Of a stretch of 64,000 bases of DNA, positions 6,001 through 52,513 are shown piece after piece (the first letter of the stretch is position 1; every line of letters starts with the position of its first letter). The position numbers and the translations under genes were made by a program. The DNA lies in contig QPGO01000192.1 in NCBI GenBank assembly GCA_008632985.1, positions 62,001 to 126,000 of the forward strand. The letters are read 5' to 3'. Under the pieces are notes generated by a model. The model saw only the letters and a program-made list of their open reading frames with translations, made no database searches and was not told where the DNA came from. Origin of the DNA: Psammoneis japonica. Lineage: Eukaryota.

Positions 6001-6316
6001 CACTCTCCATCGTGAGTCTATGCGTCGACCGTTGTCGTGTGCGCGCACACCCGAAGTCTCCTCATGGACTCTCGCGGAAGTAAGACGGACGATGTACCAG
6101 GGTCGTATGTAGGCGATTTGTTACCGTGCCCTCCTGGTATGTTTCGTGTAGAATTCTCCGTAGAAAAGTTTTTTGCGTATGTAGAAACATACGGGGATTC
6201 CGGAGGCATCGTAACAAACCGTCCGTCTGACTTCCGCGAGAGTCTATGAGGAGACCTTCGTGTGCGTGCGAGCGCGCGCGAAGAACGGTCGACGCATAGA
6301 CTCACGATGGAGAGTG
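6001..6316. mobile_element. MITE, 316 bp, ~100-bp TIRs, 9-bp TSD
   Basis: Left end CACTCTCCATCGTGAGTCTATGCGTCGACCGTT is the exact reverse complement of 6284-6316; perfect direct repeat GTTCATGGA at 5992-6000 and 6317-6325. Confidence 0.92.
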
Positions 6317-6458
6317 GTTCATGGAGGCGCACCCCTGTGGTAGGGGAGAATATGGTGATGTCATGGTTACGTGGCAGTTTATATCTTATTCATTATATTT
6401 TTGTGTAAATGTCCTCACATTTATTTATGCATTTGTACACAAATGCTAACAGCAGCAG

Positions 6459-8610
6459 GAAAAATCCTGAACCACATTCTCCCCTGAAACTCCAACCACC
6501 AAAAACCGAGGGGTCGGAAGCGCACTTTTGGGAGCTCTTTTTCTCCGCACAAAAAACACGCGTCGACTCGACCATGACGACCTCCCATTCTTCGTCCCCC
6601 ACACCACCTGATGCATCCCCGCCTGCCATGTCTGATGCGGCAGTCCCTCCTGCATTGGCCGGTGCCGTCACACCCGCTGTCGTCACCCAAACACAGCCGA
6701 TTTGCCATCCGGAGGATTTGGGCTTCTGTTCGCCGGATCCTGTGCCTAAAACACAAACACAGCGCCGTGATTGGTCTGCTCCTGTCATTGCGTCCCCGGA
6801 GAAACTGGATTCTCGTTCGCATCGCCGTGTTGTGGAAGGTGCTGATGAGCCTTCTCTCAAACGGTCTGGGGTGCAGCTCCGAAACCAGGTCAAAAAACAA
6901 AAGCAACAAACCGACGTCAAGGTTCAGTGGGTGTGGCAGAGGAGCATCTATGACAGGAGGTGTGGTGATGACCTTTCTCAGGATGATTGTTCCTGAGCAG
7001 AACCTTGTCCATCTGGAGGTGATTGAGACTCACCCAGAGCCCAGCGGAACCAATCGGAGCCAACAACAAGTGTCAAGATGAACCGCAGCAACATGTGAAG
7101 GAGGACGCAGCTGATGGAGTGCGGGCAGAGAAGGTGCCGGCATGCAAAGTGGCAGCATGGCTGTCGACAAGGCACTGGTTTTGAAGGTCCAACAGTGACA
7201 AACACAGTGAGCATTTGCCAAAAGCACGTTGCTGTCTGCCTCCATTTTGGCAACATGCAAAAACAGCATGTTGCACATCACATGCAGAATTCAAACGGCG
7301 AGAGTGGCCTCTTGTGGAATTGCACACAATGACCTGGTCCTGGAAAACAGAGCAGTGTCCAAGTCACATGCACCATTTGAAACCTTGCCAAGTCGCCTGC
7401 AAACAAATGCCAGTTCGCTGACCTCTCCAACTTGAAACTAAAAAACTGTGAAAGCATGCCTGCCACCCAATTGTTGTCAGGTTTCTAATTTACAGAGAGC
7501 TGCATGATGTGTCTGTGTGTTCTAAAGATCAGACTGCACTCGAGAGCTGACCAAGAGGCACCATTCATGTCCATTGATGTGTCGTCCATCAGCAGGCCGT
7601 GGTTGCGTGGGTTTCCTGGTCCGCTGTCATCCGTCATCCATTGTGTTCCTTCCAAAGCAAAAACAACAACAGCATCAACAGCAACTGCAGCAGCAAGGGC
7701 AGGATCAACAGTGTCGGGCATGCCAGGGGGCCGAAATGCAGGTGCGGCGTTGGAATTCGTGACAGCATCTGTGGGAGGCGGTGGGGCGAGAATGAAAGAA
7801 GTGTGAGTTACAAGCATTTCGTTGTGGACGTCATTGGCAAAAGACAACAACAGTGTCAACAGCACCTGCGGCAGTGAGGGTGGGAGTGACAGCATCGGGC
7901 ATGCCAGGGGGCCGAAACGCAGGTGCGGCATTGGAATTCGTGATGGCATCTGTGGGAGGCGGTGGGGCGAGAATGAAAGAAGTGTGAGTTGTTGGCATTT
8001 CATTGTGGACGTTGTTGGCAAAACACAATGACAGCATCAACAGCACCTGCGGCAGCAAGGGCAGGAGCAACAGTGTCGGGCATGCTGGGGGGCCGAAACG
8101 CAGGTGCGGCGTTGGAATTCGTGACAGCATCTGTGGGAGGCGGTGGGGCGAGAATGAAAGAAGTGTGAGTCATTGGCATTTCATTGTGGACGTCATTGGC
8201 AAAATGCAATAACAGCATCAACAGTGCCTGCGGCAGCAAGGGCAGGAGCAACAGCATCGGGCATGCTGGGGGCCCGAAATGCAGGTGCGGCGTTGGAATT
8301 CGTGATGGCATCTGTGGGAGGCGGTGGAGCGTGCAAACAACAGTGTGAGTTTGTAGCATCTTATTTTGTACGTGTCACACCCACGAGAACCGGAACAATG
8401 ACATCACCTGTTGCATCAGTGTTGTTGGCAACGGTGTCAGCAGGATCGGCATCCTGGGAAGGCGATGGGGAAGAACCACGAGGCATCATCATGGTCGAGT
8501 CGACGAAACGCGTGTTTTTTGTGCGGAGAAAAAGAGCTCCCGAAAGGCGCTTCCGACCCCTCAGTTTTTGGTGGTTAGAGTTTTAGGGGAGCTGTGGAAC
8601 AGGAATTTTC
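6459..8610. mobile_element. Degenerate long-TIR DNA transposon (Mutator-like organisation), non-autonomous
   Basis: ~130-bp imperfect inverted repeats (6459-~6590 vs ~8480-8610) starting GAAAA(A/T)TCCTG; each TIR ends in an inward-facing ...GTCGACTCGACCATG; no TSD found. Confidence 0.75.
7650..8330. repeat. Tandem repeat, 181-bp unit, ~3.7 copies
   Basis: GTGGGAGGCGGTGG recurs at 7771, 7952, 8133 and 8314. Confidence 0.92.
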
Positions 8611-9030
8611 ACTTGTGGAACATGCACATCCGTGTGGACATTGACATTAAAACTCAACGCACGGCGAAGCCGTGCACGCACAACCACGCACACACACAGC
8701 TCCCCCACCACAGGGGTGATGGAGGCGTGGTCTGCAGCAGAGGTGAGATGCAAGATGCCCGAAGCATCACAAGCAGCAGGCGGAGGCCAGACGTTGTTTC
8801 CGCGGCAAAGTCGGTCTCGCTCTACCAGCCACACACGCGCAGCCAGGATTTCAGCCACCTCCAACAATCAACAGCTCCGGCCATTTGACATCTGCTTTGC
8901 ACCGACATGGAATCTCCTGCAGAAGTGCATGACCTTGCATGTGGTGCACAAGCATTTTGATGATCCTTGTGTTTGTAGAGTGCAAATGAGCTGATTGCAA
9001 GTGCACCGCCTCTGCAGGGGATGGTGAGAG

Positions 9031-9592
9031 AGTCCAGCGAGAAAGTTTGCATGACCCCCCAGGAACGCAAGGGAAACAAGTTGTGTGGTCAGCAGAAATG
9101 CAGTGAAAATGTTTGCACCCCCAAGGAACCCCCGCGAAAAGTTTGCATTCCCCCAGGAACGAACCCCCGTGAAAGTTTGCATTCCCCCAGGAACGCAGTC
9201 GCGGAGGAACCACCGAGAAAGTTTGCAGCCCCTGCCCAGGAATGCAGTCGCAAGGAAAACTTTGTGCAGCAACCCCCAACCCCGCCCAAAAATTTTCATC
9301 CCCCAAGGAACTCCGGTGAGAAGTTTGCAGCCCCCCAGGAACGCATTCGCGAGAAATGGCATCAGGGTCACAGTGGAAAACTTTGTGTCCCCCCAGGAAC
9401 CCCGTGAGAAAGTTGGTGTCCCTCGAGGAACCCCGGCGAGAAAGTTTGTAGCCCCCCATGAATGCAACCGCAAGAAGTTTGTCATCAGGAATCACAGTGG
9501 CACTCTCCATCGTCCGTCACGATGGAGAGTGTCACAATGGAGAATTTGGCATCCCCCCGCCCAGGACCCCCGCGAGAAAGTTGGCATCCCGT
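9031..9592. repeat. Array of degenerate ~30-bp units (CGCGAGAAAGTTTGCA...CCCCCAGGAAC), probably transposon subterminal repeats
   Basis: More than a dozen same-orientation copies of GAAAGTTTGCA / CCCCCAGGAAC. Confidence 0.75.
9501..9531. mobile_element. 31-bp minimal derivative of the 6001-6316 MITE family
   Basis: CACTCTCCATCGT-CCGTC-ACGATGGAGAGTG; flanks TCACAGTGG / TCACAATGG form a 9-bp TSD with one mismatch. Confidence 0.8.
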
Positions 9593-10825
9593 GAATGGCA
9601 CTGCTGGCAACCACCAGACTACAGAGCTGAATGTTGCATGTGGGATTCAATGGATGTGATGCAACTGTGTGCATGTGCTCTTTAATTGGTGTCTAAAAAT
9701 CTTGTTCAAAAATGAGAATGACCCTCACCAAAAATTCGACGCGAAAAACGACACGGCCGTGGCGACAAAAGCTGCTCGAGTTGATCCCACAGTTTGACAT
9801 GCTAGAAAACCAAGGCATGAATTGATGCATCTTGTCAATTGGTTGTTGCACTTGCACAGTGCACATGACAAAAACAATCCCCTGCAGAAACCCATGCAAA
9901 TTCTGCACAAAAATGAAATCTCCAATCAACGACCCTGTCACAAACGGTGACCGGCAATGCTGCACAAACAACCTCAACAATCAACCAACATGTCACAAGG
10001 TTTGACAGACAATGAATGAGATGACCACACATCAACAAAAGTGCCACACCACACAAACGACAATGACGGTGAGCGGGTCATTGTCGACACAGCAGATTTG
10101 TGTGACTCTGATGGACACAGATTGAGAATTTCATGCTGTGGGGTAAAAGTGAAGACACACGGGCAGACAAAAAAAGCACGACCTTCAGTCATGCATGTCA
10201 GAGCATGCTTGGAAGAGAATGTCCAGGGAGAGCAAAGTGACAAAAGAAGCAAAAGCGGCTTTGCAAGAACAGCTCAAAAAGTGGTCGATTTTTGGTCCAA
10301 AAAAGACGGGGGGTTGGCTGCCCCGCAACAGACAACCATTGCAATCTCTGTGTGAAACAAGGAAAGAAACCTGATTTGGTGTTCCTCCAGCAAATTTTCT
10401 GGAGGGTGGCATTTTTCTCTGCATGCGGTTCTGTGGGGCATGAGACTCCTCATGAAAGAAAGGAACAACCTTGAGCAAATCATGCTGCAGTTGCTAAGAA
10501 TTGACAAAGTGCAACAGAAAAGTGTTGTTGTGGCAATCAACAGGAATCTAGAAATTGTGAGGGTTGCTCTGCACCACCCACCAATTGGGCAACAGTGGTG
10601 GTCTTCACCAAATGGTCCCAAAGCTTGTTTTTTGGTGACAGCATGGCCAGAATCACTCAGTCCCCTTGAGCTGACACCAGCCCCAGTTGGGTCAGTTCAA
10701 CATGTCCTTTGCCTTCTTCATTGCCGCCCTGTTCCAGGTGCAATCCAAAATGTCAAATCGGGGTGGGCAAAACCCCTCCATTTTGGAGAGGACAATCCCG
10801 GCTTGTCCATTTTGGACAGGCCAAC

Positions 10826-13800
10826 TCACCACAGCATGTGGCAAGTCAGTTCTCGGAGCTTTGGTCCAGGCACAAGTTTGGTCAAGACATCCACTAGATT
10901 TGTGCGTCTGTCCTCCCAAGCAATCTGCACAACACCTGCAGTGCCTGTGCCTCACGCGTCCAGTGACAAGCAATGACACTGTGCTTCTTTTTGAAAGTTG
11001 ACTCTGGTCATGTCAAGTTCTTGAACACAGCCTCATTGTCACAGAAAACATTGGCAGGTCCCTTGACTGGGGTTCCTCCCATCATTCAAAGCTTGTGATG
11101 CAAGGCTTCAATTTGCTCCACCGCAGCTTTCATTGCAACAAATTCCAGCCAAACATGGATGACTCCATGGCATTCTGCCATTTGGAGCACCACAGAATTG
11201 GCGCCCATTGCATGAAGATGATGATCCCCATGTGGGATTGTTGCATCACACAACAACCAGCATGATCTGCATCAAAGAAGCGTGTGGCAGTGACACCATT
11301 GCTCCATGCCTCAGGGACATCCCTCGGGACAGCTTCAGCTGCCCCAGGACAATGTTCCAACCAGCCACACTTCTGAAAGGGAGATGGGTCAAAGGTGGGC
11401 TCAGTGTCATCAAACACCATGTCACAAACTTTGCATGTGCTTTCAGATGCGCAAAGATGTGAAGCACCTCATCCAAGTGACTGACCCTTGGTGCCGCCAG
11501 GTGCAAGGACATGAGGGACATGGCAACTGTCACATCAACCCGGCCCAATTCCACCATCCAGCACAAGACACTGGTGAGCCCCTCATGATGACTTGCCCTC
11601 TGGGCATCCAATTCAGAGAAATGTCAAGTTCTGGTCTGTGTCCCGAGCTCAATGGAGTTGAAGCCTTTGACCTGAGGCTTCAGCCTGCTTGGCCAAGCTT
11701 GAATTCAACATTGGCAGTTGCCCTCTTGACATGCAAGTCTGAGGACAATGCCCAATGTGTCTCACCATCTGAGTCAGACAGCTGGCATTTGCAGATCTGT
11801 GTGCCAAGGTGCTCTTCCAGTTCCTTGACACTTCCTTCCTCAAGCCCACAATGAGATGCCATGTGGTCCACAAACATCTGAGGGTCATGAGAGACTGCTG
11901 ACAAGTCATCAATGCAAACAAGTGCACATTCCCAGCACTTGAAGCCATCCAGCTTGACCGCCTTGTGCATCCACACATTGGGGTCTCCCTTGCTAGATTG
12001 GAAGCCCACCTTGCATGGGGTTGCCACCATGTGGTCTTGAAACCCAGCACCTGAGCTGTTGAGTCCATGTGGCACTGGCTGCTCCTCATTCTGCTTTCCA
12101 AATTCCAGACCAGCAGCAGCACAGCAGCATTCCTTGGTCTTGGCATTTAAATGCACATTCTGGACATCTGCTGCACACATGACATCCAAATTGTTCAAAG
12201 CCACGATCGCAAAGGCTGTCCTGACACCATCATGTGTCACAATGCCAGAGCAAGTTGACTCTTTGGGCGGCTCCATCTGATGACCTCCAGCTGCACAGCA
12301 GGCTTTCCTGGTCAAGTCGGTCTTGATGTCAAATGCCATGTGCTGGCACTTGATGTGTTTGAACCTGACTGGGATGGAGTCATCATCTGAGAATTTGAGC
12401 GCAGGGATGAGGTTCTTCATCTCTTTCTTGACTGCCTTCATCCAAAGGTCTGGCCTGTTTTCTGGTCAATGGCCAGAGCTTGCTGCACAGTCTTTGGGAG
12501 TTCAATCCCAAACTTGAGGGTGCACTTCCAGCACCTGGTCTTGACCTTCATGACCATCCTGGCATGTCGACATGACACGACATGCACCCACCAGTTAAAG
12601 GCTGGTTCACTTGCAATCTTGTTTGAGACCACACATTCAGCCACCTGTGTGGGAAAGGATTCCTTCACCTTGGCCAGTGGCATCCAGTCCATGGTGCTGT
12701 CCTTCTGCTCCACTTGCAGGTCCCATCCAAAAGTCATTCGTCTGGGCCTGCGAGTGCTGTTGAAGGTGGCGAAGCAGCCATCATCCATCTTGATGGCTCG
12801 TGCATCACTTCAATGACCTGTTCTTGTCACCTTGACAATTTGGCAAGTCCTGTCTTTGTCATCAATCTGAGAAAAGATGTTCTCAGCCACAGTGTTGGCT
12901 GCAAAGGCATCTGTGGATCCATCCGGGAACTCCGCTTCACACAACCTGGAATCCAACATGGGATTGGAACTCCCAGCCGCAATCGGCACTCTGTCTGAAT
13001 CTTGTTTGCAACTCTTGACCTTCACATGTTTTAGCTCCCCACCCCTTGGAAGCATTGTCTCAGCTGTGATGCATTCATCCATCTCCTTGGGTGTCTGTTC
13101 ATCTGCCTTGATGCAAGACAAGTCCGGTTCAAATGGTTCTCCATTCTCACGCCATCCTCAAAGAGATCGTCAGGAGGACTTGGGAGCATGGCATCATCCC
13201 TGTCCTTGTCCTCACCCAGCTTGAGGGAGAGCACCGCGTCCACAAGCTCCAAGCAATTCCGCTTTGCGTTGATGTTTAAGAGTCATCCTTGGCAAGAGCC
13301 CACACATCCTTGTGAATGATGGGTCCACCTGACTCAGGCAGGATTGCAAACGCCATGTCATCTGCACAGCTTTCTGCAACATCTGACCAGCACCCGATGC
13401 ACTTCCTCCTTTCAAAGGGAAATTCTGCCACAGGCATCATAAAGTGCACTGGCTGGTGCCAGTCAAAGAGGGCATGAGCTGAGACGTCTGGCGTCAAACC
13501 CATGACATCCTCTTTTCTGGGACCCTGCCATGTGTTTCTGGATGATCAGAGGCATTGAGCCTCCCAGCTGCCATTGCCCAGCACTTGGCACAGCAGGACC
13601 AACAGTGTCTGGGCGCATTCGTGCGCCGCACCACAACTCTGACCTTCCTTTTGAGTTCTCGAACAGAAGCTTTGACCAAGTTCTGCCATGGACTGCAAGG
13701 TCCAGTTGTGCCTTGCTTGATCTTATGCTCCTTCACAATTTCCTCAGTGTGCCCATCAGGGGAATTCCTGCATCATGGATGAATGACATCATTGCATCTG

Positions 13801-16795
13801 GATGATCCACCTTTGAGTTCCAGGGGCAAAAGTGATCACAACCTTTTTCATTCATGAAAATTGATCCACCAAAATGTCCCCGTGAGAATTGACTTGACCT
13901 TAGAAAACATCTGGTCAGTGTAAAACCTGTCCTTCACACCAGGGAACTCAAGCCAAGGAGCCTTCTTTTGCACCTTTGTTTTGGACAGTGCGCAGACGTT
14001 CCTGACTCCAGCTTCAGTGATCACCTTCAAGGTGTTTTTTGTGGCAGTTGGGCCCATGCCCCATCTCCTGGATAAAATCTCGGGAGTCAGTGTGGACTTG
14101 CTCTTAGAAGTGGGTGGTGCAAACATGCACACACGCTCTTTGCCATCATTGTGCTCATCATTTTTGCATTTGTTGTGTGGCCCGCCCCCTTTCACATCAA
14201 GGTGGGAAACAGTTGCCACAGATGCCATGCGTTTGTGCAATGCAGAGCCGTTGCCAGCAGCGGCGATCTCTTCCGGGCAGTCAAACCCATCACTGTGCAG
14301 CCGGATTGCAGAAAAGCATTGTGCCTCATTCGTCCACCCATGCTCCCCCTTTGGGCCAAGCCCCAAGGATTGAGATGAACCAGCAATGGTGTTGAACTTT
14401 GACTCAACAACATCTTCCTGCTGGGGAAACAGGTCTGATTGTGGGCTCCATTGCATGGTTGATGTCAGCTCTAGATGTGGCAGTTCCTCCAGGTCTTTGT
14501 CAGTGGGTTTGCAGTTTCAAAACCAGACATGATCCCTTTCAGTCAGAGTGGGTTTGGACATTTGAAGTCTGGGAATGACATGGAGTGGGAGCTTGTGCTC
14601 TCAAATTGTTTTGGGGTGTCATCCACAGTTGGGTCATTGGCGCGCAATTGGCTGGGACACATCAGCAAATTTTTTGCATGGTCCCCAAAACACATGTGGC
14701 CTCATGTCTGATCAGCAGGTGTGGTTGACCTGTGGATGGGTCAGTCCAAGCAGTGGCAACTGATTGGATTGGGACATTGCGGGGCTGGTTTGTTGCACTT
14801 GTCTGAGCATGGTCACATGGCAACAGTGTGACTTGGGTCCAAGAAAGGTGCACAGGCTGAGCCAGCAATGCATGTGTCCATGTGCAAGTCAAGCTCACTG
14901 CACAATGTCTCATAAAAAGATCCAGCAGCAACTGGAGCTGAGGCACACATCAGCGCGCTGGCAAAGGACATTGATGTGAAACCAATGGGAGTGGTGCCGA
15001 CAGCATTGCCAGATGAGTCAGATGAGTTTGGGCTGTCATTGTCATCAGATTGCACTGCAAGAGTCCTCTTGCTCATTGGTGCAACCAACCACTCCTGTCT
15101 GGATTGCTCCTTCAAAGGTTTGCATTCAATCATGCCCTGCTCAACCAAAGGTTTGGGCTTGTGGACCACCCTTCTGAACAGCTGCCTTCACACCCTGCTC
15201 CTTGGGTGCAGGTTTGCCATCAGCAACAGGCTTGTCAGGCTCAGGAGGGTTGCTGGTGGAGACCTTGCTGACTTTCCTGGTGGCACTGTCCTCCTCCTCG
15301 GTGTCAAGGGCTGCAGCCTTGCACTTCCATTTGGCCTTCTCCTTCTTCTTTTTTTGCAAAGCTCGTTGACCTTAGCATGTTCTTCTGGCTCAAAGGCAAG
15401 CCATTCCTCCTTGGGATGGTGACCAGCCCCAATCCTGGGCTTGTCCTGCTTCTTTTTTCTTTGAGGGTTGCCCCTCTTCTTGGGGTCCATTTCGCATTCG
15501 TTCCAAACTGCACCAATGTGGTGCACTGTCACTCCAAGTGGTTCTTGGAATTTTCCGCCAAGGTCTTCATGTGCTTCTGGCAGAGCTCAAAGCTAGAGAG
15601 CTTGGCGTCATCACCATCCACAACTCTCTTGCCAGTTTCCAATCGGGGGTCAGCAATCCCCTTCAGGAAGTCGGAGACCTTCTTGGTCTCAGCCACCAGC
15701 TCTCCCATGTCAAGGAGGTCATCATGAGCCCTCTGGCCTCTGGTGTTGTTGGACACACCAGCTGAAGGTGCAGCAACCTTGTCCAGTGCACTTTGTGGCA
15801 GCCATCTGAGCATGCATGCAATTCTTCCAAGCAGCAGTGGCAGAAAGGCGTCGCGACCATTCTGGGCACAGTTGAGTGGTTTGACAAAGGCCCACCTGGG
15901 TCCTTTAACAATGAGCTCCTTAAGCCCATCATGTGTGCATTGATCATCTGTCATGCATGCTTGTCTGTTGTGCTTGGCCGTTGCAATCAAGTCCTTGTCA
16001 ATGGCATCACAGTCAGCTGCACAGATCTCATCAGTGACACCCGACACTTCGCGAACGATGCACAGCAGCAGCACCCCAGTCACAGCATTGTGGTGGTGAT
16101 GCAACTCTGTCTGGAACAATTCCTCCCACTTGACAAAGTCATGAACCTGGGAAAGAGGTGTGGCCTTGGGAGTGTCGTCCTGCTGCTCCTGGTTGTCCTC
16201 CTGCTCCTGCCTGCGAACATCGTCAAACTCAGCAAGACGGTCCGTCCAAGTCTTGACAATGTGCCCCCAGCAAACATTTGGGCCTGCAGCTTTCCCTCCC
16301 CCCTTGCTTTCCTGTGGCACAACCACGCATGCAGGGCCTTGAACTTCCCAACCGAGAGACATGGGAAATTGACGTCATCATTGTTGGAACTGTCCTTCCT
16401 GAGTTCTTTGATCATTTTTCATCAATCTCAGATGACAGCGGCACTTGGTGCAAATCGGCGGTGGCAGTGAAACCTTGGGTGCTGCACAAACCCTGGTGCA
16501 TTTCCTGCACAGTTTTAAAGAGTTGCCTCTGGAGGGCCACAGCTGGAGAGAGACAGATCGCGGAAGCCAAGCAAATCCTTGGTGGATGGGACAACCCCCC
16601 ACTTGCTCGTGCAGAGACGGGGGAGAGGCACGAGGCACAGACCACGGCTGCGCCGAAATTTCTGGCTGTCACGTTGTGTTGTGTAGTCCACCTGCATGTG
16701 TTGTGTGAAGGGCCAGACGAAGTGCAAACTCTAGAGCAGATTCCACTCTAGCAGCTAGAGTCCTGCCCAACGCGAGCACAACATCACGTCGAACA
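10826..16795 (-). mobile_element. Ty1/Copia (CoDi-type) LTR retrotransposon, heavily mutated gag-PR-IN-RT-RNaseH
   Basis: Minus-strand order: gag-like (16362-15529); PR 'ELDLHMDTCIAG' (~14890); IN 'YTDQMFSKVKS' and 'GPCSPWQNL..RELKR' (13930-13640); RT 'DVQNVHLNA' and 'VCIDDL' (CIDD at 11905-11916); RNaseH 'DADHAG..SHMGII..ILWCSKWQN' and 'KKKHSVIACH..RE'; stop at 10826-10828. No LTR pair identified; the 16795 boundary is tentative. Confidence 0.92.
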
Positions 16796-16897
16796 AGCTT
16801 CATCTGGAAACTGGCGCCGCGCGAAGCGGTTCCGTCTGGACTTCGTCAGGGTGCTGCAAAAAACACTTTTTGGAAAACATAAAAAAAAACGCACACC

Positions 16898-18270
16898 ATG
16901 ACGAGCGCCGTCGACGCGTCGTCTTGCAGCTCCACTGAAATGACGCTTGCAGCTCTCACACATGACACACATGATCCAAGAGTGTTCAAGTGACTGTTGA
17001 ACTTCCAAGATTGTTGAGAGATGGCACCGTCATCCAATGGTGCACAGTTGAATGGGGTCACCCGATGCGACGCACCAAATGCTGTTCCATCGTACAATCG
17101 CACCAAAGAGAGGCAAACAATGCTGATTGATGCCACAGACACCTTGTCAATCGTTGCTGTGCTCAAGTTGGAATGTGATGGAGGCGCAACACCACGCCAT
17201 GTGGCTGGTTGTGACACGAGTTGGCGCACCGTTTTCAAGAAGGTTCAAAGTTTTGTTGAGACGGATGCCGCCAAGCAGAAGCTGGAGAAAAAACACTGGA
17301 GTGAGATGCCGCGATGGGAGAAAAACACACATGAGCAACAACTTTGTATTTTGATGGATCAAAAGGCTGCAATTGAAGTCAAGCTTGCTCCAGTTGACAA
17401 CGGAGCTACGGCATTGCCGCGAGCAGTTTCACCCATGCCGGGTGCCACTTCGGAACAAACCACACGTGTTGGAGGAAGTCAATTGGCTAGAGAGTCGCCA
17501 CAAGAACCTTCTTTGAATGACACTCCACCCAATGAAAAGCTCACATCACCCACTTCATCGGAATCATCCAGAAATTTTTTTAGAGGCACTGCGAACAAGA
17601 AGCGTCGCATCACACCCCCAGCGCCAGATTCCGAAGAGCAGGCAAGTGCCGCCGCCGATGATGGTGTGGTGCAAGTTTCAATCTGAAGGCCACATCACTT
17701 CTTTCTCCAGAAGAGGAGCGCATGGCACCAGCAAAAAAGGCTGAGAATGTGAAAAAATCAACCGTCAAACCGCACCCAGTTGGAACGAATGCTGCCACGC
17801 TGTGTCAACAGGCAGACAGACACGTCATTGAATCGATCCACGGATTGTTGAGGAAAGTGAGGACTGCCATTGACACTTCACATTGTCCAGATCAGCTTGA
17901 TGATGAGCCTTGTGTGCACACTGCATGCTTGGTGCTGAATGAAATTGAACCAACCGACATTGACAGTGGACGATGCAATCCCGCTGACCTTCCGGCAAAG
18001 AAACCTGAGTTGTTGGCACTGACGCATTCGAAGCATGACACAAAGCCAGTCATGACAGCATTCAAGACAGTCACTGGGAGTGAAAGCCAGTGCAATGACT
18101 CTTTTCATTTTCACCCACCAGTTGCGGGTGAAGACGGTTTGGTTTCGCCTGCCATCGAAGACTGCATTGAATCTTTCAAGAAGAGTCATGCGAAACCGTC
18201 CAAAACGCCTGGAGACTGCTCTGAAGTTGTCGAAGAGCTGCGGCTAGACTGTGTGACTAGTCTGTGCTAG
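16898..18270 (+). pseudogene. Element ORF A, unknown protein, probable intron 17664-17710
   Basis: ATG 16898 is in frame with ORF 17021..17686 across two TGA codons (likely former CGA); a 47-nt GT..TTTCTCCAG intron joins it in frame to ORF 17722..18270. Confidence 0.55.
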
Positions 18271-18339
18271 CCACTGCTTTACGCACACCACATGTGAAGA
18301 ACATTTCAACAAACAAAGCATCACACCACTGACTTAGAA

Positions 18340-19806
18340 TCAAAACCATGCTGGAGACTGAGAAAATCCCGTCAATCCATGCACAGTGGATTGATTGGAC
18401 TGAACAGAGAAAGCTGCTGAACTCTCTCGGGATGCAGGCGAGGGTGGCACAGCCGCAGCATGATCAGCAGTTTGCCGCTTGCGTGTGATCGCATGCTTGC
18501 GAGCAAATTTAGATCGGACACATTCATTTGCGGATGGGATGTCTTGGTCAATCTCTGCTTTCAGTCTTGCTTCGAATTTGGCAAATTCGCCAGCTCTCTC
18601 CGACTGTCGTTTCGCCTTAAACTCCTCCTTTCGAGACTCCGGCCATTCTGGATCCATCTTGCGCATTGCTTGCCTCACCAAAACAATTCTGTGGACTTTT
18701 GGGGGCTTGTTCAAACCCCCTTTGACAGGTTTCGGGTGCGCCGCCACAATTCCTTGCCACTCCGACGGCTCAAGCTTTGCTGCCAGATGTGCTGGCTCCT
18801 TGTCAAGCTCTGGCACTGTGCAGACAAATTGCTTCATCAAGAAGCTGCAGTCCTCTGAGCAGCATCGCTTCAGCTCATCCTTGAGTGCTGTGTCCTTCTT
18901 GCCTGCTTCTGGCGGCATCAGTGAAAGATCAACTCCGTCTTCACCTGTCTCTGGACGTGCACAATCAGATGGATCGCCATTTGCAATGAATTTCTCAAAG
19001 TGGTCCACGAATCGTGCAGGCATGCCATCGTCCAGCATTTCTCCACACCCAAGAGCATGGAGACATCTGAGGAGAATGAACTCCTGATTGCATGCAAGCT
19101 TTGTTAAAGTTGACCGATTCAACAGCTCTAATGAATCAAACTTTTTCGTCGGGCAAAGGGTGATCAGGATGGTGTGAAAAAACTTGAAGATTTTCTCGAG
19201 CGCTTCTTTCATTTCGCTCGTCCAATCATCCTGCGAGCAAGTGGGTAGAGCCATTGAAACAACCGCAACATCACCATCCTCTTTGCATCCAGCAAAGGTC
19301 AGTGAAGAATAATCCTGAATCCTTGATGACGCGATGTGAGTGTTGTCTCCGAAGAGTTGGTCCAGTGTTTCCTTGTTTCAGATGAAATGATGCACCGGAT
19401 CCATCTTGGAATTGAAAGGAGTGATTTTGTGACAGCTGGGTTGTTGAATTGGTTTGACAGTGCCATTGTGACGTTCAAAACGGACTGCATGTATTGCACG
19501 TTCCGTTGTTTGGCTGTTGCATGCCCCGCAGCACAGCGTTGCGTCACAACCTCTCAGTGCGACAGTGCTGCCGAAGCAACTGATGCATGTTGCACATTTG
19601 TCAGCACAACCCAGCTCATGATGGCTTTCAATTGAAGCACATGTTGCATTCTCACAACATGCACACGTCTTCTCTGACGAATAAAGCGATCCGAGCTCAC
19701 ATTCGACAGTCACCGCGTTTGACCGAGACGAACCACCGCACACTCTCCGAGCTCTTTTCTTTGCTGACAGTGACATCCTGTGAAAAATTTGAAGATGCAG
19801 CATCAC
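18340..19806 (-). pseudogene. Element ORF B, possible transposase remnant
   Basis: ORFs 19378..19806 and 18340..19254 are one frame interrupted only by TGA at 19378-19380 (likely CGA); contains 'NSQTTERAI', reminiscent of the S/T-x-x-x-ER motif around the catalytic Glu of DDE transposases. Confidence 0.5.
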
Positions 19807-20028
19807 TTGAGTGTAGAAGAAGAAACGGTTCCTTTAGTATGACTGTGATAAGCCTTGTAGTTATTGTGAAATAAACGTCCGCAAGACGGCTCTCGTCATG
19901 GCGTGCGTTTTTTTGATGTTTTTCAAAAAGTGCTTTTTTGCTTTTTGCAGTACCCCGACGAAGTCCAGACGGAACCGCTGCGCGCGGCGCGCGCTAGTTT
20001 CCAGATGAAGCTGATAGGCCTTATCATA

Positions 20029-20334
20029 CTACAAATTGCAAGACAATTGCGCGATTCACGTGCCCGAAGGTGGAATATCGTTGCCCGAAGCAACATTCTC
20101 CCTTCGCGCAGATGTCATTTCTACGTATGATGTGGTATCAAAATTTTCATTTTGGTCGTCTAAATCGTCCCAGTCATTTCATCAAATGACCTTGTGGTAC
20201 TCTCCTACGTGATCTACGCAAATCGGAGCTTCGGGCTGGCTGGTACATTTTCTACAGGCTCTACGTGCGCGAAGCTCGAATTCAACAATCACCCTTCGGG
20301 CACGTGAATCGCGCAATTGTCTTGCAATTCGTAG
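20029..20334. mobile_element. MITE with ~42-bp TIRs and TA TSD (Tc1/mariner-like)
   Basis: CTAC(A/G)AATTGCAAGACAATTGCGCGATTCACGTGCCCGAAGG at the left end and inverted at the right end; TA at 20027-28 and 20335-36. Confidence 0.8.
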
Positions 20335-20421
20335 TACGACGTGTTGATTGAACAGCCAGAACAAAAAGCAAAGCGAGTCGTCCACAACGTTGGGCAACAA
20401 AAAAATTCTCCCATCAAAACC

Positions 20422-23400
20422 ATGAATGAAAATTTTGGCCCAGTCACGCCACAACGGGCCAACGGTCGGCCGATAAACGCGGTCAGTGGACACAAGCGAA
20501 ATGCTGAAGCAGCGATACTCGATGATGCGCAGCTGTGTGCTTCTCCCGGTGCTCAGCCTCGCAGTCCTGGCATGACGGATCTCATTCATTATGAAAGAAA
20601 GAGATCACAAGACGAAGCAACGAACGCTGCTCCTCATTTTGAGTCCGACAGTAGTAGTGCTCGTCGTGAATCCGGGTTTTCGGGGGGAGTTGACGAAGCG
20701 TCGAGCGTTCAAAGAGACAGTGTCGATGGGGTCGCGTTGACTGAGGAATTTTCGACGCCGCTTGTTGGGAAACACGGCCACTATTGGTGGACGAGGTACC
20801 GTGCAGTATTGAACGCGGATAATTGGAGCAAACTCGCAAATGAGTTGAAGGTCACGCCCCATATGAGGGACGTCGTGGTGCCGGAGCCACCTCCTTTTAT
20901 TGAAGAGAGAGCTACAATCGACGAGGTTCCGTTGCCGGGGGCAGCTGTGAATGAAAGTTTTGACGAAGATGCGCTGCTTACTACTGACAATCTCAGTTCT
21001 GACGACAAAGTTTTCTACGATTCTCTACCGAATGAAGAGATGAAGAATTACTACCTGCGCGGCAAGCTGCGAGCGACGATTGAAGAGCGAAAAGCTGAGA
21101 TTGCAGAGCGAAAAGCTGAGATTGCAGAGCGAAAAGCTGAGATTGCAGAGCATCAAAGGAAGGTTGCAGAGCGAAAAGCTGAGCGAGAGTTGCACCAAAG
21201 GAAGATTGAGAAGCACCTCGTTGAAATCACGGTGGTAGCAACTAGTGTTGAGACGTCGCTACTTGCATTGTCATCCCTTTCACAAGCCGAAGGGACAGTG
21301 GCCAGAGATACAAAGGATGCAGAAGAAACACTCAAGAAACGGAGAATGAAGGAAAGTCAAGCTGAGGAGTTTGTGAAGGATGCTGACCCAATCGTACAGG
21401 AGCCAGCATCGCTCTCCGAAACGTACAATTCGGTTTTGGAAAATGAAAGAGAGTTCTCAAGCACTTTTGACCGAGAATCATTGAAGCACTTTGATGACGA
21501 AAAACAAAACCCGCTGCTTCGACTGAGCAATGCTTATGCTGCGGCTGTAAAGTCGACTGCGAATTTCACGAAACGACAGGAGTTACATGGCGATTTGGAA
21601 GGATACAAGATGCGCATTGAGAAGACTGTCAACAAGCTGCAGACTGAATTCAAAAAAGCAAGAGAAAATTCTGAACATGATCCTTCCTTCGAAGCGGATC
21701 TCGTGTTCCCTGGTCCAACCAGCCAAGAAGTTCATGGCGTCCAGCCAGTTTTCAAAGCGCTCCTCGAAGCCATCGGTGACTGTTGTCAAGTGGCATATGA
21801 TGGTAAGACGCATCCGTCCTCGCCACCGAACATTGGTGTATCGGAACAAAAGGAGTTGTATGGAAATGAGAAGCGACGAGGGCGTCGCTGTGATATTGCG
21901 GTTTGGAAACGTGGGAGACACGTTGTTGCACTGCTGGATGGTTTCATGGAGGTGACGTTCGAGATCAAGCCGGGACAGCGCATTGACAAGACAGTGCTAG
22001 ACATGCTGTGCGAAGGAAAATTCCAGGGTCTCAGCCACGTAGCTAAGGCGCTACTACATTGCTTGCGCTTCGCGGATGGTGCAGGTGTTCCGTCGCATGC
22101 AACGTCCATAACTGGTTCGCTAAGTCACGTCGAGATCATCCAACTCTGTGTAGTTGATCCAGGGAAACCAACCTCTCGCGTCGAGTTACGCTCATCCGGA
22201 CCATTGCCACTTTTGCCAAAAGATTGTTTTCGCAAATGGTTTGATTCAGACAATTCGCGGCACTCAGAGGCCGTTGACACCATGGCGAACCTTTTGTACG
22301 GAAAGGACGACAACGGCATGGACGAGAAAGGTATTCCACTTGGCATCAAGGGTCTCTATACAATGATGATGTGCCCTCGTCGTGAGCTCATTGGTCCCAA
22401 TTGGGAAAAAGTCTCGGGTTCGCTTGGCGAACTACTTGGTGTCGGTACGTTTGGCATGGTTTTTGCTGTCAACGGAAGTGATGATGCTGTAGTCAAATTG
22501 TCCAAGACCTCCCTGTCTCGCTACATCAAACGGGAAGCCGCAATTTTGAAGCTGTTATCGTCATGTGACGATAGACCAAATAGTGTAGGGCTACCTCACT
22601 TCATTGCATGTGGGCTAATGGAGGTAAATGTTGGGGGCGTGGCGTTTCAGTTACCCGCACTTGCAATGCAACCACGGTGTCAAAACATCTACAGTGTGTG
22701 CTCCGGTTGGTCAGACGAAAAGCGCTTTAGTGTCCTGAAGAAAATCCATAATGGCATTTTGAGTGCTCTGTGCTTTATCCACAAGCAGCATAATATTTGC
22801 CACCGTGACGTCAATGACACAAACATACTTTTGCGTTATCACACGGAGACTGATGAATGGAGTGCTGTACTGATTGACTTCAGCGTTGCCGGCCCGATGT
22901 ACGAGAATGTCAAGGGCTTTGTAGGCACTCCGACGTTCACTCATCGTGAAGTGCATAAGAATTCCGAATGGATATCTGCCCCACAGTATGACGATACAAA
23001 CCTTGGTTTCACATTAGTTGTGATTCTTGAGGGTGGCGTCGTTCCTTGGAAGGGTTTGAGTGACAAGGGCCCACAGAAGGGCACTGATGTGTATGATAAG
23101 CGAATTGAACAGGCGAACCTTTGTTTACGGGAGAATGTACAGAACAAGAAACTGGACGCCGATCTAGCGAAGTGCATCAAGGATCTGTTCCTGAAGGATA
23201 AGGAAAAGTTTCGAAGTGCTTGTGGCTGCAAAAAAACACAATGCAGAGGCGGCCGTTGCAGTTGCAGTAATACCGAAAACGGTAGCTCCATTTTGTGCGC
23301 ATGTTGTTATGACAAGCAAAAGGCGGCTTTCTCCTGTTTAGGCAAGCACAATGGTCCGCAGAAGGGGAGCGTCGACGACGTCAAGTTTGATGCCCCTATC

Positions 23401-28140: not shown

Positions 28141-31100
28141 ATGAAAGTCGTTTGCAAGGGAGTTTCTCTCCTTCTTGCTCTTGCCTTCTGTGAGGCGTCA
28201 GGTAAGTGCAAACATTCCTGTAGTTAATCATGCTTGGACGACAGAGCTAACGAACCCTGCATTTCCTGCTATCCGATGCTCTTCATCAGACCTCACGACG
28301 GATTCGGGACCGAACGGTGGTACTAGTACCTTCCCAAACGTAAGAAAACGTGTGAAGTCTTCCGATCCTCGGTGTGGTCTTTCCTGTCTTGTTGGCCTCA
28401 CAACTTCCACTCTCTCCTGCCCCTTTTCGCGTGTTGGTCTCACAACTTCCACTCTCTCCTGCCCCTTTTCTGCTCGAACGCCAATCAGTACTACGATTAC
28501 TATAGTCCCACAGGAGCGTGTTGTGAATTTAAAGGCAGGCGGCCCACATGTTCTGTCATACAGCAAAGCGAGTGCCGAGGTCGGGGCGGTCACTATGTTG
28601 GAGACGGAAGCAATTGCAGACGTAACAGGTGTGCAAGCGTACCGCGTCCCACGCCAGCTCCGACGCCGCGTCCTACTCCTACGATGCTTGATAAGAGGCA
28701 GGGCGCATGCTGCTTGAAGTTCAGGTAAGTTTTGTCCAAAAGTGAACATGAACCAATGCTTCTCTATTAAATTTGCATTACCACGTCGCTTTGTACAAAT
28801 AACTGCCTTTTGGTTCTACAGAAACCGATGCGTCATTACGTCAGAGGCCTCGTGCAAACTTAAGTACGGAATTTACCACGGGGATGAAACGGTAAGAGTA
28901 GTTGCAATTGTGAGACCAGCACAAGATGTACGAATATATCAGGTGTTAAACCCACTTTTTGTTCTTACCTCGAATTGTACAGACCTGCATCCGAGGTGGG
29001 TGTGCGAATCGAGGAGCATGCTGCTTGCCTTCAGGTGAATGTCTTCCCTTTCAAAAGAAAAACGAGTGCCGAAAGTGGCTAGGTGGAGCATTCCAAGGCA
29101 TCGGCTCAACTTGTCAAGATGATGGGGCGTGCGGCGCGACTCCAACCACCGCGCCCGTTCCGACCCCGTCTCCGACTCCTCTACTAGACGAAAGAGAGGG
29201 AGCTTGTTGCTTGCCGTTCGGAAGCAACAAATGTTTAGTTCTTCCGAGGAAGACTGCGCCAAGGAACGAGGCGGATACAGAGGAGATGATACGTCGTGCG
29301 CTACCACTACTTGTCCACGTCTCGGAGCTTGTTGCAGTGATGGCGGATGTACCAGGACTACTCCGTTTAAATGCAACAATGGAGACTATCAGGGTCGCGG
29401 TACCGAATGCAGAGACGACGACGGCCTACCCATTTGTCCAACACCTTCTCCTACCCCGTCTCCCACTGCCTCTCCCACGGAACGCACCAGAGAAGGAGCT
29501 TGTTGCTTGCCGTTCGGAAGCAAAAAATGTTTAGTTCTTTCCGAGGAAGACTGCGCCAAGGAAGGAGGCGCATACAGAGGAGATGATACGTCGTGCGCTA
29601 CCACAACTTGTCCAAGACTCGGAGCTTGCTGCAGTGATGGCGGTTGCACCAGGACTACTCCGTTTGCATGCAACAATGGAGACTATCAGGGTCGCGGTAC
29701 CGAATGCAGAGATGACGACGGCATACCCATTTGTCCAACACCTTCTCCTACCCCGTCTCCCACTGCCTCTCCTACGGAACGCACCAGAGAAGGAGCTTGT
29801 TGCTTGCCGTTCGGAAGCAACAAATGTTTAGTGCTTTCCGAGGAAGACTGCGCCAAGGAAGGAGGCGCATACCGAGGAGATGATACGTCATGCGCTACCA
29901 CAACTTGTCCAAGACTAGGAGCTTGCTGCAGTGATGGCGGTTGCACCAGGACTACTCCGTTTGGATGCAACAATGGAGACTATCAGGGTCGCGGTACCGA
30001 ATGCAGAGACGACGATGGCCTACCCATTTGTCCAACACCTTCTCCTACCCCGTCTCCCACTGCCTCTCCTACAGAACGCACCAGAGAAGGAGCTTGCTGC
30101 TTGCCGTTCGGAAGCAACAAGTGTTTAGTTCTATCCGAGGAAGACTGCGCCAACGAAGGAGGCGCATACCGAGGAGATGATACGTCGTGCGCTACCACAA
30201 CTTGTCCAAGACTCGGAGCTTGTTGCAGTGATGGCGGTTGCACTAGGACTACTCCGTTTGGATGCAACAATGGAGACTATCAGGGTCGCGGTACCGAATG
30301 CAGAGACGACGGCGGCCTACCCATTTGTCCAACACCATCTCCTACCCCGTCTCCCACTGCCTCTCCTACGGAACGCACCCGAGAAGGAGCTTGCTGCTTG
30401 CCGTTCGGAAGCAACAAATGTTTAGTGCTTTCCGAGGAAGACTGTGCCAATGAAGGAGGCGCATACCGAGGAGATGATACGTCGTGCGCTACCACAACTT
30501 GTCCAAGACTCGGAGCTTGCTGCAGTGATGGCGGCTGTACCAGGACTACTCCGTTTGGATGCAACAATGGCGACTATAAGGGTCGCGGTACCGAATGCAA
30601 AGATGATGACGGCTTGCCCATTTGTCCAACACCTTCTCCCACCCCGTCTCCCACTGCCTCTCCTACGGAGCGCACCAGAGAAGGAGCTTGCTGCTTGCCG
30701 TTCGGAAGCAACAAATGTTTAGTTCTTTCCGAGGAAGACTGTGCCAATGAAGGAGGCGGATACCGAGGAGATGATACGTCGTGCGCTACCACAACTTGTC
30801 CAAGAGTCGGAGCTTGCTGCAGTGATGGCGGCTGTACCAGGACTACTCCGTTTGGATGCAACAATGGAGACTATAAGGGTCGCGGTACCGAATGCAGAGA
30901 TAATGATGGCTTACCCATTTGTCCAACACCTTCTCCCACCCCGTCTCCAACTGCCTCTCCTACGGAACGCACCCGAGAAGGAGCTTGCTGCTTGCCGTTC
31001 GGAAGCAACAAATGTTTAGTTCTTTCCGAGGAAGACTGTGCCAAGAAAGGAGGCGGATACCGAGGAGATGATACGTCGTGCGCTACCACAAATTGTCCAA

Positions 31101-31525
31101 GACTCGGAGCTTGCTGCAGTGATGGCGGTTGTACCAGGACTACTCCGTTTAAATGCAACAATGGAGACTATCAGGGTCGCGGTACCGAATGCCGAGACGA
31201 CGACGGCCTACCCATTTGTCCAACACCTTCTCCTACCCCGTCTCCGACCCCAAGCCCAACGGTTGAAGTGGGACGTTGTTGCCTTACCAACGGCGACTGT
31301 GCTGTAACCACCCCTGATAAATGCAATGATAAGTTCGGTGTGTACCAAGGAGCTGGGTCCACGTGTGACATTGACGATAAGCGTTGCAGCGATAAAGGAA
31401 GCTGCTGCATCGGTTTCTATCCCTTCTGCATTGACGTTAACGTTGCGGTCTGCAAGAAGAAACGCGGTGACTTCAGGGAAGATACCGTATGCTTTGATAC
31501 CCGTTGGTGTCCTGGTGAGACCTAG
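28141..31525 (+). CDS. Secreted Cys-rich 'GACC'-repeat protein with PT/PS linkers; exons 28141-28201, 28290-28339, 28489-28724, 28822-28891, 28983-31525 (1-nt frameshift at ~29242)
   Basis: Signal peptide MKVVCKGVSLLLALAFCEA; four GTAAG..AG introns preserve frame; repeated GACC..C..C..GG.Y.G...C modules. Confidence 0.85.
28390..28470. repeat. 42-bp tandem duplication in intron 2
   Basis: GTTGG(C/T)CTCACAACTTCCACTCTCTCCTGCCCCTTTTC at 28391 and 28433. Confidence 0.85.
29195..31255 (+). repeat. Coding tandem repeat, 297 bp (99 aa) x ~7
   Basis: GGAGCTTG(T/C)TGCTTGCCGTTCGG at 29199, 29495, 29792, 30089, 30386, 30683, 30980; the first period is 296. Confidence 0.95.
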
Positions 31526-32149
31526 GCTCGGCGTCCGAGATCCCATTGATTGTGCTCGTATTACGTATTTTAGCGAGGTGTGTGGCTCGAGGTCAAGTCA
31601 GCCAGCAATAAATTGAGTGCCACCATGATACCTCTGTATTACTTTAGATTCCCGATACCCGAAGGAAGAAGCAAACGGGGCTTGGGTCCATTAAAAAGAA
31701 AAATAGTGTCCATGTTCTGTGAATCTTGCGCAAGATTGTGTGTAGTGAGTAGTAGCGTCGAATCGATCAATCTCAAATCCCTCGTATTTCATGAGTCTCG
31801 CTGAAATTTCCCCGAGCTCTGAAATAATCCTCTCATGACAAAAGCTTGCGTAACATTCTTAAAAGCTGTCAGAATGTGGAGGAGATAAACACGTCGAGCT
31901 ATGAGCTATCTATTGCTGTCGAACGCATCCTCCATCATGCCTTGAAATAACGCGGCTTGATGCTTGATCGGCGACGGGGATAAAAAAAACTCGACTCGTT
32001 CGACTAGAAATTGAGATTGTGCCATGGTCGAGAGAGCACCATGAGAAACGGGTCATCCTCTGCTGTTTTTAACTGTTTCATAACCTTGAGATAAACAACT
32101 AATTTTGCAGCCAAAATGTGAATCTTCCCAACAAATGCAATCTGATTTT

Positions 32150-40400: not shown

Positions 40401-40450
40401 CGATTCAACATTCACGACTCATTCACGATTCACACGACGGGCGATGATCA
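37410..40450. mobile_element. Unidentified hypermutated (TpA/CpG-depleted) block, presumably repeat-derived
   Basis: Same compositional signature as the Copia domains; no conserved motif recognised. Confidence 0.45.
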
Positions 40451-40635
40451 CGAAAAACGACGAGAGTGCGTGCGTATCGCGACGACCAACGACAAAGATA
40501 GATAGGTCTACAACTAACACGCCACAGCACGCATTCCCGGTTCTGACCAATCACCAGCTGACAAACCACAAACACTCTCACGATCAACCGATTGCTTTGT
40601 TTGACTTTGACATTTGGCAAACCGTCTTTGACATC

Positions 40636-45032: not shown

Positions 45033-45772
45033 TTAATGCAATGATGTGGCTTCTGATCCGTTCGGCCCCGATGCAAGTCGTGATAATGTAGTCCTTCAGA
45101 CTGTTGATTTTGGCGCCCACGGAAAATTCTGCACAATCTTCGTCCACTGCTGGGCATCTGTCAATCGGCAGACCACCATTGTCGTGCTCCAATGGCACGA
45201 TCGTGATCGACACCATGGCTGCCATGCCGGGAAACAGGACGAGGAACAAATGAACAATCAAGAGACAAGGATGCCAAAGGCATGACATTTGCTTGTCATT
45301 GATGTTTTTCTGCTTTCTGCACCCACCTTTTTTTGGCTGACATTTGTTGTTGTTGCTGCCTTTGTTCTTGCTGCTTGTTCTTGACTGTGTCTCTTGTGTT
45401 GAGCCGCTGCTGTTGTTGTTCCCTCTGCTGGAGCTCTGTTGGCAGCGTCAAGGAGTTTCCATTTGGTCTGGGTCTGTTGTTGTGGTTGCTGCTTGTTGTG
45501 GTTCTTGCTGATTGCTGCCTCCCAGCAGCCACCTCCCACCGTGTTGTGGAGTGTCGTGCCAGGATGGGTGCCGGCACTTTGCAGGCAGCCGAGCTCTTGG
45601 AGGAGATGGCAGCAGTGCACTCGCACAGCACAGCAGAAGGCAGACAGACAGATGATGGACGAAGATGAGAGGCCACCCATGTTTTCTCTCATGGTGCTTG
45701 GTGAATCACCGGCGACACAATGGGTGCCGACAATGCTGAAAACATCATTTCTGCACGCTGGCGTGCCTTGCA

Positions 45773-45990: not shown

Positions 45991-45999
45991 CCCATGGAA

Positions 46000-52479: not shown

Positions 52480-52513
<34 letters not shown>

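Follow-up and report, generated by a model that had tools for sequence, protein, structure and literature searches.

Apparent TpA-to-TpG/CpA hypermutation of resident mobile DNA in the repeat-derived blocks of a diatom-like genome

Hypermutation directed at the dinucleotide TpA has been described in Bigelowiella natans, in which de novo changes of TpA to TpG or CpA arise in mutation-accumulation lines, only some of which are active (Mettrop et al., bioRxiv 10.64898/2026.01.13.699255). According to the main text of this preprint, 231 of 302 de novo mutations fall in two integrated viral regions and are nearly all of the TpA-to-TpG/CpA type, 124 TpA-depleted clusters are present, and an ADAT2-like deaminase is proposed (bioRxiv 10.64898/2026.01.13.699255). 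Fungal repeat-induced point mutation (RIP), as also described in the Discussion of the same preprint, turns CpA/TpG into TpA and leaves TA enriched. In Cyclotella cryptica, CpG-methylated repeat blocks of up to 30 kb are reported to alternate with unmethylated gene-rich blocks (PMC5124317). A full-text search of open-access papers and bioRxiv preprints found no report of the TpA signature outside the B. natans preprint, and none in diatoms. Here, we analyze a 64-kb stretch of contig QPGO01000192.1 (positions 62,001 to 126,000), designated the window, in which an earlier note had read two pairs of terminal inverted repeats (TIRs), those of element 1 (16796-20012) and element 2 (6459-8610), as a record of TA changing to TG and to CA. 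We consider it probable (about 0.8) that context-specific transitions take place on the chromosome within discrete blocks of the window, with TpA going to TpG or CpA almost to completion and CpG following more slowly; the transitions would be deaminations, and their targeting would depend on chromatin.

Dinucleotide profiles revealed five TpA-poor blocks with sharp edges, which together occupy approximately 32 of the 64 kb. They comprise block 1 (6460-19800), throughout which TpA is almost gone, block 2 (32100-33450), block 3 (37560-40470), block 4 (45090-55600), in which TA has fallen to 0.16% and CG to 1.09%, and block 5 (56540-60560), which has a repeat in common with block 4. The blocks are 1.3-13 kb long and alternate with gene-rich DNA, and their borders are sharp in the sense that they lie within tens or a few hundred bases. 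Inside the five blocks, TA accounts for 0.33%, CG for 1.87%, TG for 10.40% and CA for 11.45% of dinucleotides, as against 4.12%, 5.42%, 7.38% and 7.21%, respectively, outside. TG and CA together are thus 7.3 points higher in the blocks while the sum of all pyrimidine-purine dinucleotides (YpR) stays constant, at 24.05% inside and 24.12% outside. Because this sum is equal in the two compartments, TA and CG appear to have given way to TG and CA through transitions. Expressed as observed/expected ratios, TA in the blocks reaches 0.01-0.17, and TG/CA 1.5-2.0. The core of block 1 (10000-16500) is poor in both CpG (1.6%) and TpA. The two TIR elements at the ends of block 1 retain 4.6-4.7% CpG; they have lost approximately 85% of their TA and only approximately 13% of their CpG, so the TpA process would be much faster than the loss of CpG, and the elements look younger than the block 1 core. 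As both elements are embedded in block 1, the differences between their arms can be regarded as ordinary samples of a block-wide change of TA (and CG) into TG/CA.

The direction of the change is best read from comparisons other than the TIR arms. Between repeat copies inside the blocks, CA stands opposite TG at 32 places in 1239 aligned nt, compared with one place in 1890 nt outside (Fisher p = 2e-12); the 1239 nt include three adjacent comparisons in one tandem array, which are not independent, and the comparison of tandem copies r1 and r3 was excluded. One step is insufficient to produce such a double difference, and therefore TA or CG must have been an ancestor or intermediate. Ten double differences occur in the repeat common to blocks 4 and 5 (47696-47992 versus 57639-57929, 72% identical). 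Element 2 contains a 181-nt tandem repeat in four copies (7657-8373, plus strand), whose alignment mixes CA and TG in 10 columns; one of these columns keeps TA, in a single copy, and none has CG. A second column with TA, TG and CA is seen by eye in the alignment near column 153, where the fourth copy is misaligned and the script left the column uncounted. Seven CpG columns of this repeat are fully conserved.

Protein outgroups point the same way. For the open reading frame (ORF) at 18343-19377 on the minus strand of element 1, an exhaustive search recovered 21 relatives at E <=1e-3 (best 1.4e-27), and a word-indexed homologue search returned no matches. Tyrosine makes up only 1 of its 345 residues (0.3%), compared with 0.9-4.5% in the relatives, and its cysteine content is 3.5%. 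A histidine codon, CAC (19000-19002), lies opposite tyrosine in 10 of the 11 relatives with a residue there (12 aligned), and a cysteine codon, TGC (18820-18822), lies opposite tyrosine in 5 of the 12 aligned relatives, including the two closest. Viewed on the plus strand, these two sites represent one TA-to-TG and one TA-to-CA change. Over the whole alignment, the relatives' tyrosines are matched by histidine 16 times, phenylalanine 15 times, cysteine 9 times and tyrosine once. Run X1 supplied further genomic copies, with 1044 contigs of at least 80% likeness to 8400-21000 (12.6 kb). The best-supported 40 of 1485 variant rows, which are not a random sample, include 6 places at which TG/CA in the window is matched by TA in other contigs, 13 at which it is matched by CG, 5 at which CG in the window stands against TG/CA elsewhere, and none at which TA in the window stands against anything else. 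At position 17446 in element 1, for example, the window reads CA and all three X1 contigs covering the site read TA. Taken together, these comparisons support TA as the probable ancestral state, with TG and CA both derived and the change occurring on the chromosome after insertion, since tandem copies and arms of one element differ at these very dinucleotides. In this respect, the direction proposed in the earlier note is supported by five independent lines, namely double differences, tandem columns, the position of TG/CA in the in-block arm of pair 1, protein outgroups and other copies, and its placing of the change after insertion is upheld as well.

The two TIR pairs are true repeats by self-BLAST, and the letters cited for them in the earlier note are all present. 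The arms of pair 1, 16796-16912 on the plus strand and 19885-20012 on the minus strand (117-128 nt), are 83% identical over 129 nt (E 4e-31). The left arm lies within the block and carries TG at 16812-13, TG at 16852-53, CA at 16847-48 and one TA at 16880, whereas the right arm lies in the spared end of the element, with TA at 19951-52 and 19995-96 and CG at 19956-57. All four YpR differences of this pair have TG/CA on the left, in-block arm. Besides the three sites cited in the earlier note, the arms differ at another CA/CG site, by four changes that are transversions or of other kinds, and by indels of 4 and 8 nt. The right arm possesses private insertions of 4 nt and 7/8 nt that are absent from most other copies mapped there, and the deletion form is found among the X1 contigs in 3 at 19987 and in 2 at 19935. 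The right border of block 1 falls inside element 1: TA comes back at 19814, approximately 210 nt before the element ends, and 19 TA (0.63%) in 16796-19800 stand against 9 (4.2%, the outside level) in the 212 nt of 19801-20012. The description of the right TIR as lying at the domain edge is therefore accurate. In element 1, the left arm within the block would have lost its TAs and two CpGs, while the right arm, in the escaped stretch of approximately 210 nt, would have kept them.

In pair 2, the left arm (6459-6580, plus strand) contains no TA and the right arm (8486-8610, minus strand) contains two, at 8576-77 and 8584-85, both in the context CTAA; the arms (122-125 nt) are 87% identical over 127 nt by self-BLAST (E 1.5e-36). 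The TA at 8584-85 faces TG at 6485-86 and the TA at 8576-77 faces CA at 6493-94. The remaining dinucleotide differences are three CG/TG sites, which run in both directions. Here both arms lie in the block, and each would have lost different sites, with the two remaining TAs standing in what appears to be a slow context. Seven X1 contigs have the family state at 8546. The outer left end of element 2 matches the left border of block 1 to within 12 nt: dense TA runs up to 6447 and the TIR begins at 6459, with 16 TA in 6200-6447 and then 2 in 6459-7438. No target-site duplication is evident in the flanks of element 2.

How much the pairs themselves can say about direction is a separate matter. Of the 18 substitutions that the two pairs contain, 9 are single-step differences from one YpR to another (one of them adjoining a gap), compared with 46 of 208 in a baseline of eight repeat comparisons outside the blocks (Fisher p = 0.018). 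Several observations weigh against reading the pairs, and the change as a whole, as a simple loss of TA. Differences of the TA type amount to 4 of 18 in the pairs versus 19 of 208 in ordinary repeats, which is not clearly higher; the left arm of pair 1 has a TA (16880) that faces TC in the right arm; the eight TIR sites named in the earlier note are not polarized by any third copy; and column 164 of the tandem repeat contains CG, CA and TA together, which calls for a step outside the model. To these may be added that runs X1 to X3 represent one sample, possibly the source of the assembly, and that the variant comparison concerns the best-supported rows only. A sensitive BLAST search found no third copy of either TIR family in the 64-kb window, the TIR cores had no matches in viral, metagenome and prokaryote contig collections, and none of the eight sites is among the best 40 of the 1485 variant rows. 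As a comparison of two arms has no polarity, the pairs alone are weakly informative, and the view that the direction of mutation can be read from the TIR pairs as such does not hold. One of the sites cited for pair 1 as a TA change, 16847-48 versus 19956-57, is of the CpG type (CA versus CG).

The alternative that fares best treats TA at the TIR sites as derived: the consensus of the families would be TG/CA, and the right arms would have acquired TA through ordinary or RIP-like C-to-T or G-to-A changes. The lack of direction in two-arm comparisons speaks for it, as does the occurrence of TA/TG and TA/CA differences outside the blocks (the 19 of 208 given above). Nevertheless, we regard it as very unlikely. 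The arms with TG/CA sit in DNA that has lost approximately 90% of its TA, and the TA-bearing arm of pair 1 sits in DNA with normal TA; the CA-versus-TG double differences and the three-state columns need a source in TA; tyrosine has been replaced by both histidine and cysteine within the same element when measured against protein outgroups; and at the listed variant sites CA or TG in the window corresponds to TA or CG in further copies, with no reverse case for TA among those best 40 rows.

A second alternative is an artefact of assembly or base calling, in which modified bases (5-methylcytosine at CpG and a modified TpA) were misread as TG/CA in long reads. Both dinucleotides are palindromic and both turn into TG/CA with random strand, as strand-wise miscalls would give. 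We attach little credence to this explanation. The TA-free core is recovered in single-copy X1 contigs that were assembled from exact words of 31 letters and depart from the window at 7 positions over 1396 nt, 7 over 1712 nt and 4 over 493 nt, whereas a TA content of approximately 4% would mean approximately 57 differences per 1396 nt; this comparison is to be read with the possibility that the window was itself assembled from X1. TA is retained at homologous places in further copies from this run, the loss of tyrosine in the ORF is matched by coherent histidine and cysteine codons, and the same signature arises de novo in the Illumina-sequenced lines of B. natans, as described in the preprint's main text (bioRxiv 10.64898/2026.01.13.699255). 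In the single-copy core at 12087-16514, approximately 0.5% of positions separate the X1 contigs from the window; 8 of the 11 core differences listed are CG versus TG/CA, in both directions, and allelic CpG decay may therefore still be segregating in the block 1 core.

It could also be supposed that the blocks were poor in TA and CpG before they arrived, either because a foreign donor had that composition or because TA was selected against, with no mutation in situ. The coding content of the blocks would fit such an origin. Pfam scans covered 174 ORFs, 126 in the blocks and 48 across the whole window; Pfam-bearing host genes are restricted to DNA outside the blocks, and the in-block ORFs of at least 90 aa show no Pfam family above the cut-off. 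These 126 stop-to-stop ORFs are 90-179 aa long, and long open frames occur in all six frames because TAA and TAG have been erased. This origin is nonetheless about as improbable as the artefact. The dinucleotides in question are the very ones at which tandem repeats of a single locus, and the paired arms of an element, have diverged, TA is kept in other copies of the same families, and the depletion ends inside element 1, approximately 210 nt from its end, instead of at the element border.

As for the strands, TG and CA occur in the blocks at 3343:3679, their autocorrelation does not exceed 0.015, and the overdispersion ratio is 1.04 in the blocks versus 1.09 outside. Because there is neither autocorrelation nor a difference of note in overdispersion, the two strands seem to be hit site by site and not in runs. 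The earlier note's statement that both strand outcomes occur is confirmed, TG and CA lying 8 nt apart in one arm and showing no strand clustering across the blocks. Strand-coordinated (processive) editing is ruled out by the same autocorrelation and overdispersion values, and the succession of TGs in tandem copy r2 falls short of significance. RNA-level A-to-I editing of a transcript by an ADAR-like enzyme, followed by reverse transcription and reinsertion, is the least credible of the alternatives: ADAR does favour a 5' U, as the Discussion of the preprint notes (bioRxiv 10.64898/2026.01.13.699255), but the two outcomes are found side by side in one arm (6485 and 6493) and near 1:1 block-wide without strand runs, the differences separate the arms, and the tandem repeats, of one and the same insertion, the Pfam scans of the 174 window ORFs revealed no reverse transcriptase, and the border falls inside an element.

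The TAs that survive in the blocks are unevenly distributed with respect to their neighbours. As many as 68 of 106 are YTAR (Y, pyrimidine; R, purine), compared with 235 of 1313 outside, and 5 of 106 are RTAY, compared with 384 of 1313. A four-parameter additive model, in which the base 3' of the adenine on each strand governs how fast that adenine is lost, agrees with the counts in each of the ten tetranucleotide classes (deviance 3.3 on 6 df) and gives a likelihood-ratio statistic of 123 when compared with a uniform rate; the fitted exposures are 0.51 for A, 0.78 for G, 2.24 for C and 2.45 for T. From this fit, we infer that TAY would be preferred over TAR approximately 3-4 fold. The model predicts that YTAY/RTAR should resolve to YTGY/RCAR at approximately 78:22. 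The observed gain is 704 in YTGY plus RCAR versus 406 in the opposite class (YCAY plus RTGR), the asymmetry holds in five of five blocks, and an even split of the CpG loss leaves 417:119 (78:22) for TA. Two points count against this preference: it assumes that the blocks once shared the composition of their flanks, and the individually polarized asymmetric sites fit TAY in about half of the cases (2 of 4 from X1; 1 of 2 from the protein comparison). The polymorphic CA/TG columns are uninformative on this outcome by design, as they supply one of each per pair. It is also possible that the pattern of surviving TAs reflects new TAs arising preferentially in YTAR.

The favoured reading, that of chromosomal transitions acting within the blocks, may be put in mechanistic terms as follows. 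In the TpA step, deamination of adenine would yield inosine, which is read as G, and the enzyme would read one strand at a time with the above preference for 5'-TAY-3' over 5'-TAR-3'. In the CpG step, 5-methylcytosine would be deaminated. The TpA step would be confined to a chromatin-defined repeat block, probably CpG-methylated by analogy with C. cryptica. The natural substrate context of TadA/ADAT enzymes is U33-A34 in tRNA. A more specific proposal, which we put forward tentatively and rate somewhat below even odds, is that a diatom-like stramenopile possesses a TpA-directed A-to-G hypermutation of DNA, a kind of reverse RIP, which would act strand-wise and with a preference for TAY in methylated repeat blocks with sharp borders, would run approximately ten-fold faster than CpG decay, and would be catalyzed by a TadA/ADAT-like deaminase.

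Concerning the nature of the elements, the remnant gene of element 1 (18343-19614, minus strand) fits the N-terminal and C-terminal parts of relatives of approximately 1000-1130 aa. Against the relatives of 1014-1136 aa, only the N-part (approximately aa 38-234) and the C-part (approximately aa 856-1115) match; because the central portion of approximately 650 aa is absent, element 1 appears to be an internally deleted, non-autonomous derivative of a multi-copy family. Dispersed copies, including deletion derivatives, are represented among the X1 contigs, of which 7 cover 8546 and 3 cover 19987. No Pfam family above the cut-off was found for the ORFs of both elements or for the long relatives, and hence no recognized transposase. 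One long relative has a sub-threshold match to DUF6589 (E 1.3e-4, 21.3 bits; cut-off 27), and the Atlas look-alikes of the approximately 1100-aa family give DUF6589 at 0.83, which serves as a lead only; the literature on DUF6589 yielded a single, unrelated paper. This family has no PDB match by sequence or profile search, and its AlphaFold 2 model, built from 3 sequences, has a mean predicted local distance difference test score of 33 and is unusable. One X1 contig joins 16799 to 20013, although the shorter side of the joint is only 30 letters long. This contig (depth 69, single-copy-like) lacks element 1 and a neighbouring small inverted-repeat element, its parts corresponding to 16770-16799, 20013-20020 and the window from 20335 onward, and could be either an empty-site allele or a paralogous locus; a 5-bp duplication, AAGCT, would be implied for element 1 only if this single contig is the empty site. 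Elements 1 and 2 are thus plausible as DNA transposons. The designation used in the earlier note stands as far as the inverted ends, the multiple copies and the gene with its internal deletion are concerned, but not in terms of a recognized transposase, and the target-site duplication depends on one contig.

The small element itself (20024-20339) lies just beyond block 1 and has 47-nt inverted ends that are 96% alike. Its arms differ only at two CA/CG sites, very many similar contigs map there, and on one reading it is flanked by TA (20027-28 and 20335-36). At the other end of block 1, the DNA at 6001-6316 is nearly palindromic and contains nested inverted repeats (33 nt, 100%; 36 nt, 94%); it abuts the left border from outside and has normal TA. 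In block 4, two sub-threshold matches to the GDA1/CD39 nucleoside phosphatase family are located on the minus strand at 52990-53289 and 53724-53849. They are collinear with the profile (332-392, E 4.7e-4, and 124-147, E 0.021) with consistent spacing, and may be remains of a decayed gene resembling those for nucleoside triphosphate diphosphohydrolases. Outside the blocks, an 800-aa open frame at 29123-31522 on the plus strand consists of seven 297-nt tandem repeats that are 92-95% alike; the frame has no Pfam match and its repeats have no CA/TG double differences.

The host genes outside the blocks include those for a kinase, a sulfatase, a class-C G-protein-coupled receptor and a DUF3605 protein, and long uninterrupted ORFs are consistent with an intron-poor genome. 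The best named relatives of the receptor (61189-63297) are from diatoms, namely Cyclotella cryptica (42%), then Amphora, Thalassiosira and Seminavis, with other hits reaching 73%, and its Atlas cluster is most often assigned to Bacillariophyta. Two host genes have no match above 73% or 58% in sources that include MMETSP and EukProt. Judged by these protein comparisons, the host looks diatom-like and not chlorarachniophyte.

If the host is a diatom, TpA hypermutation of resident mobile DNA would not be a peculiarity of one chlorarachniophyte but a wider defence in ecologically dominant algae. As the branch of the supergroup differs from that of the published case, the finding would, if true, imply an ancient or convergent DNA-editing genome defence across groups of the stramenopile-alveolate-Rhizaria (SAR) assemblage. 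The near-saturated blocks give a clean end-state that goes beyond the main text of the published case. CpG decay alongside TpA loss would tie the process to silenced chromatin and makes two clocks comparable within one element, and a quantitative preference of TAY over TAR would constitute a testable fingerprint of the enzyme. In practical terms, erased TAA/TAG and the loss of tyrosine in real genes mislead gene callers and homology searches.

Compared with known systems, the locus shares with animal APOBEC/ADAR a motif-specific hypermutation of mobile DNA that would likewise be of the deaminase type. The targets of APOBEC and ADAR are single-stranded cDNA, or RNA, ahead of integration, and the resulting tracks are biased to one strand, whereas here both strands of resident chromosomal DNA appear to have been hit independently. 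With fungal RIP it has in common dense, context-specific transitions that are limited to repeated or mobile DNA and a likely role in genome defence, but direction and chemistry are opposite, as TA is erased and TG/CA enriched in the blocks. The fall of CpG to 1.1-1.9% with a rise of TG/CA, in repeat blocks among gene-rich DNA, resembles the decay of methylated CpG expected from the diatom pattern; such decay covers the CpG half alone and leaves TpA untouched. The closest likeness is to B. natans. In both cases TpA turns to TpG or CpA depending on the strand, in discrete regions of foreign or mobile DNA, and as far as the main text of the preprint describes it, the long-term trace there likewise consists of TpA-depletion clusters enriched in CpA and TpG, with most of the affected ORFs unannotatable. 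The regions in B. natans are integrated viral DNA; the blocks here are repeat-derived, block 1 containing two multi-copy TIR elements. The host genes here are diatom-like instead of chlorarachniophyte. TA has fallen to a near-saturated level here (0.33%), compared with 3.3% reported for the nucleocytoplasmic large DNA virus region of B. natans; CpG is co-depleted here and is not mentioned in the available text of the preprint; the borders here are sharp; and a preference for 5'-TAY is suggested here, while the 3' neighbour is absent from the preprint's main text. The events in B. natans were observed de novo, and the evidence here comes from the standing sequence of one sample. Apparently, therefore, the window harbours the same kind of hypermutation as B. 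natans in a different lineage, to which are added the joint depletion of CpG, a block border that falls within an element and an inferred preference for TAY.

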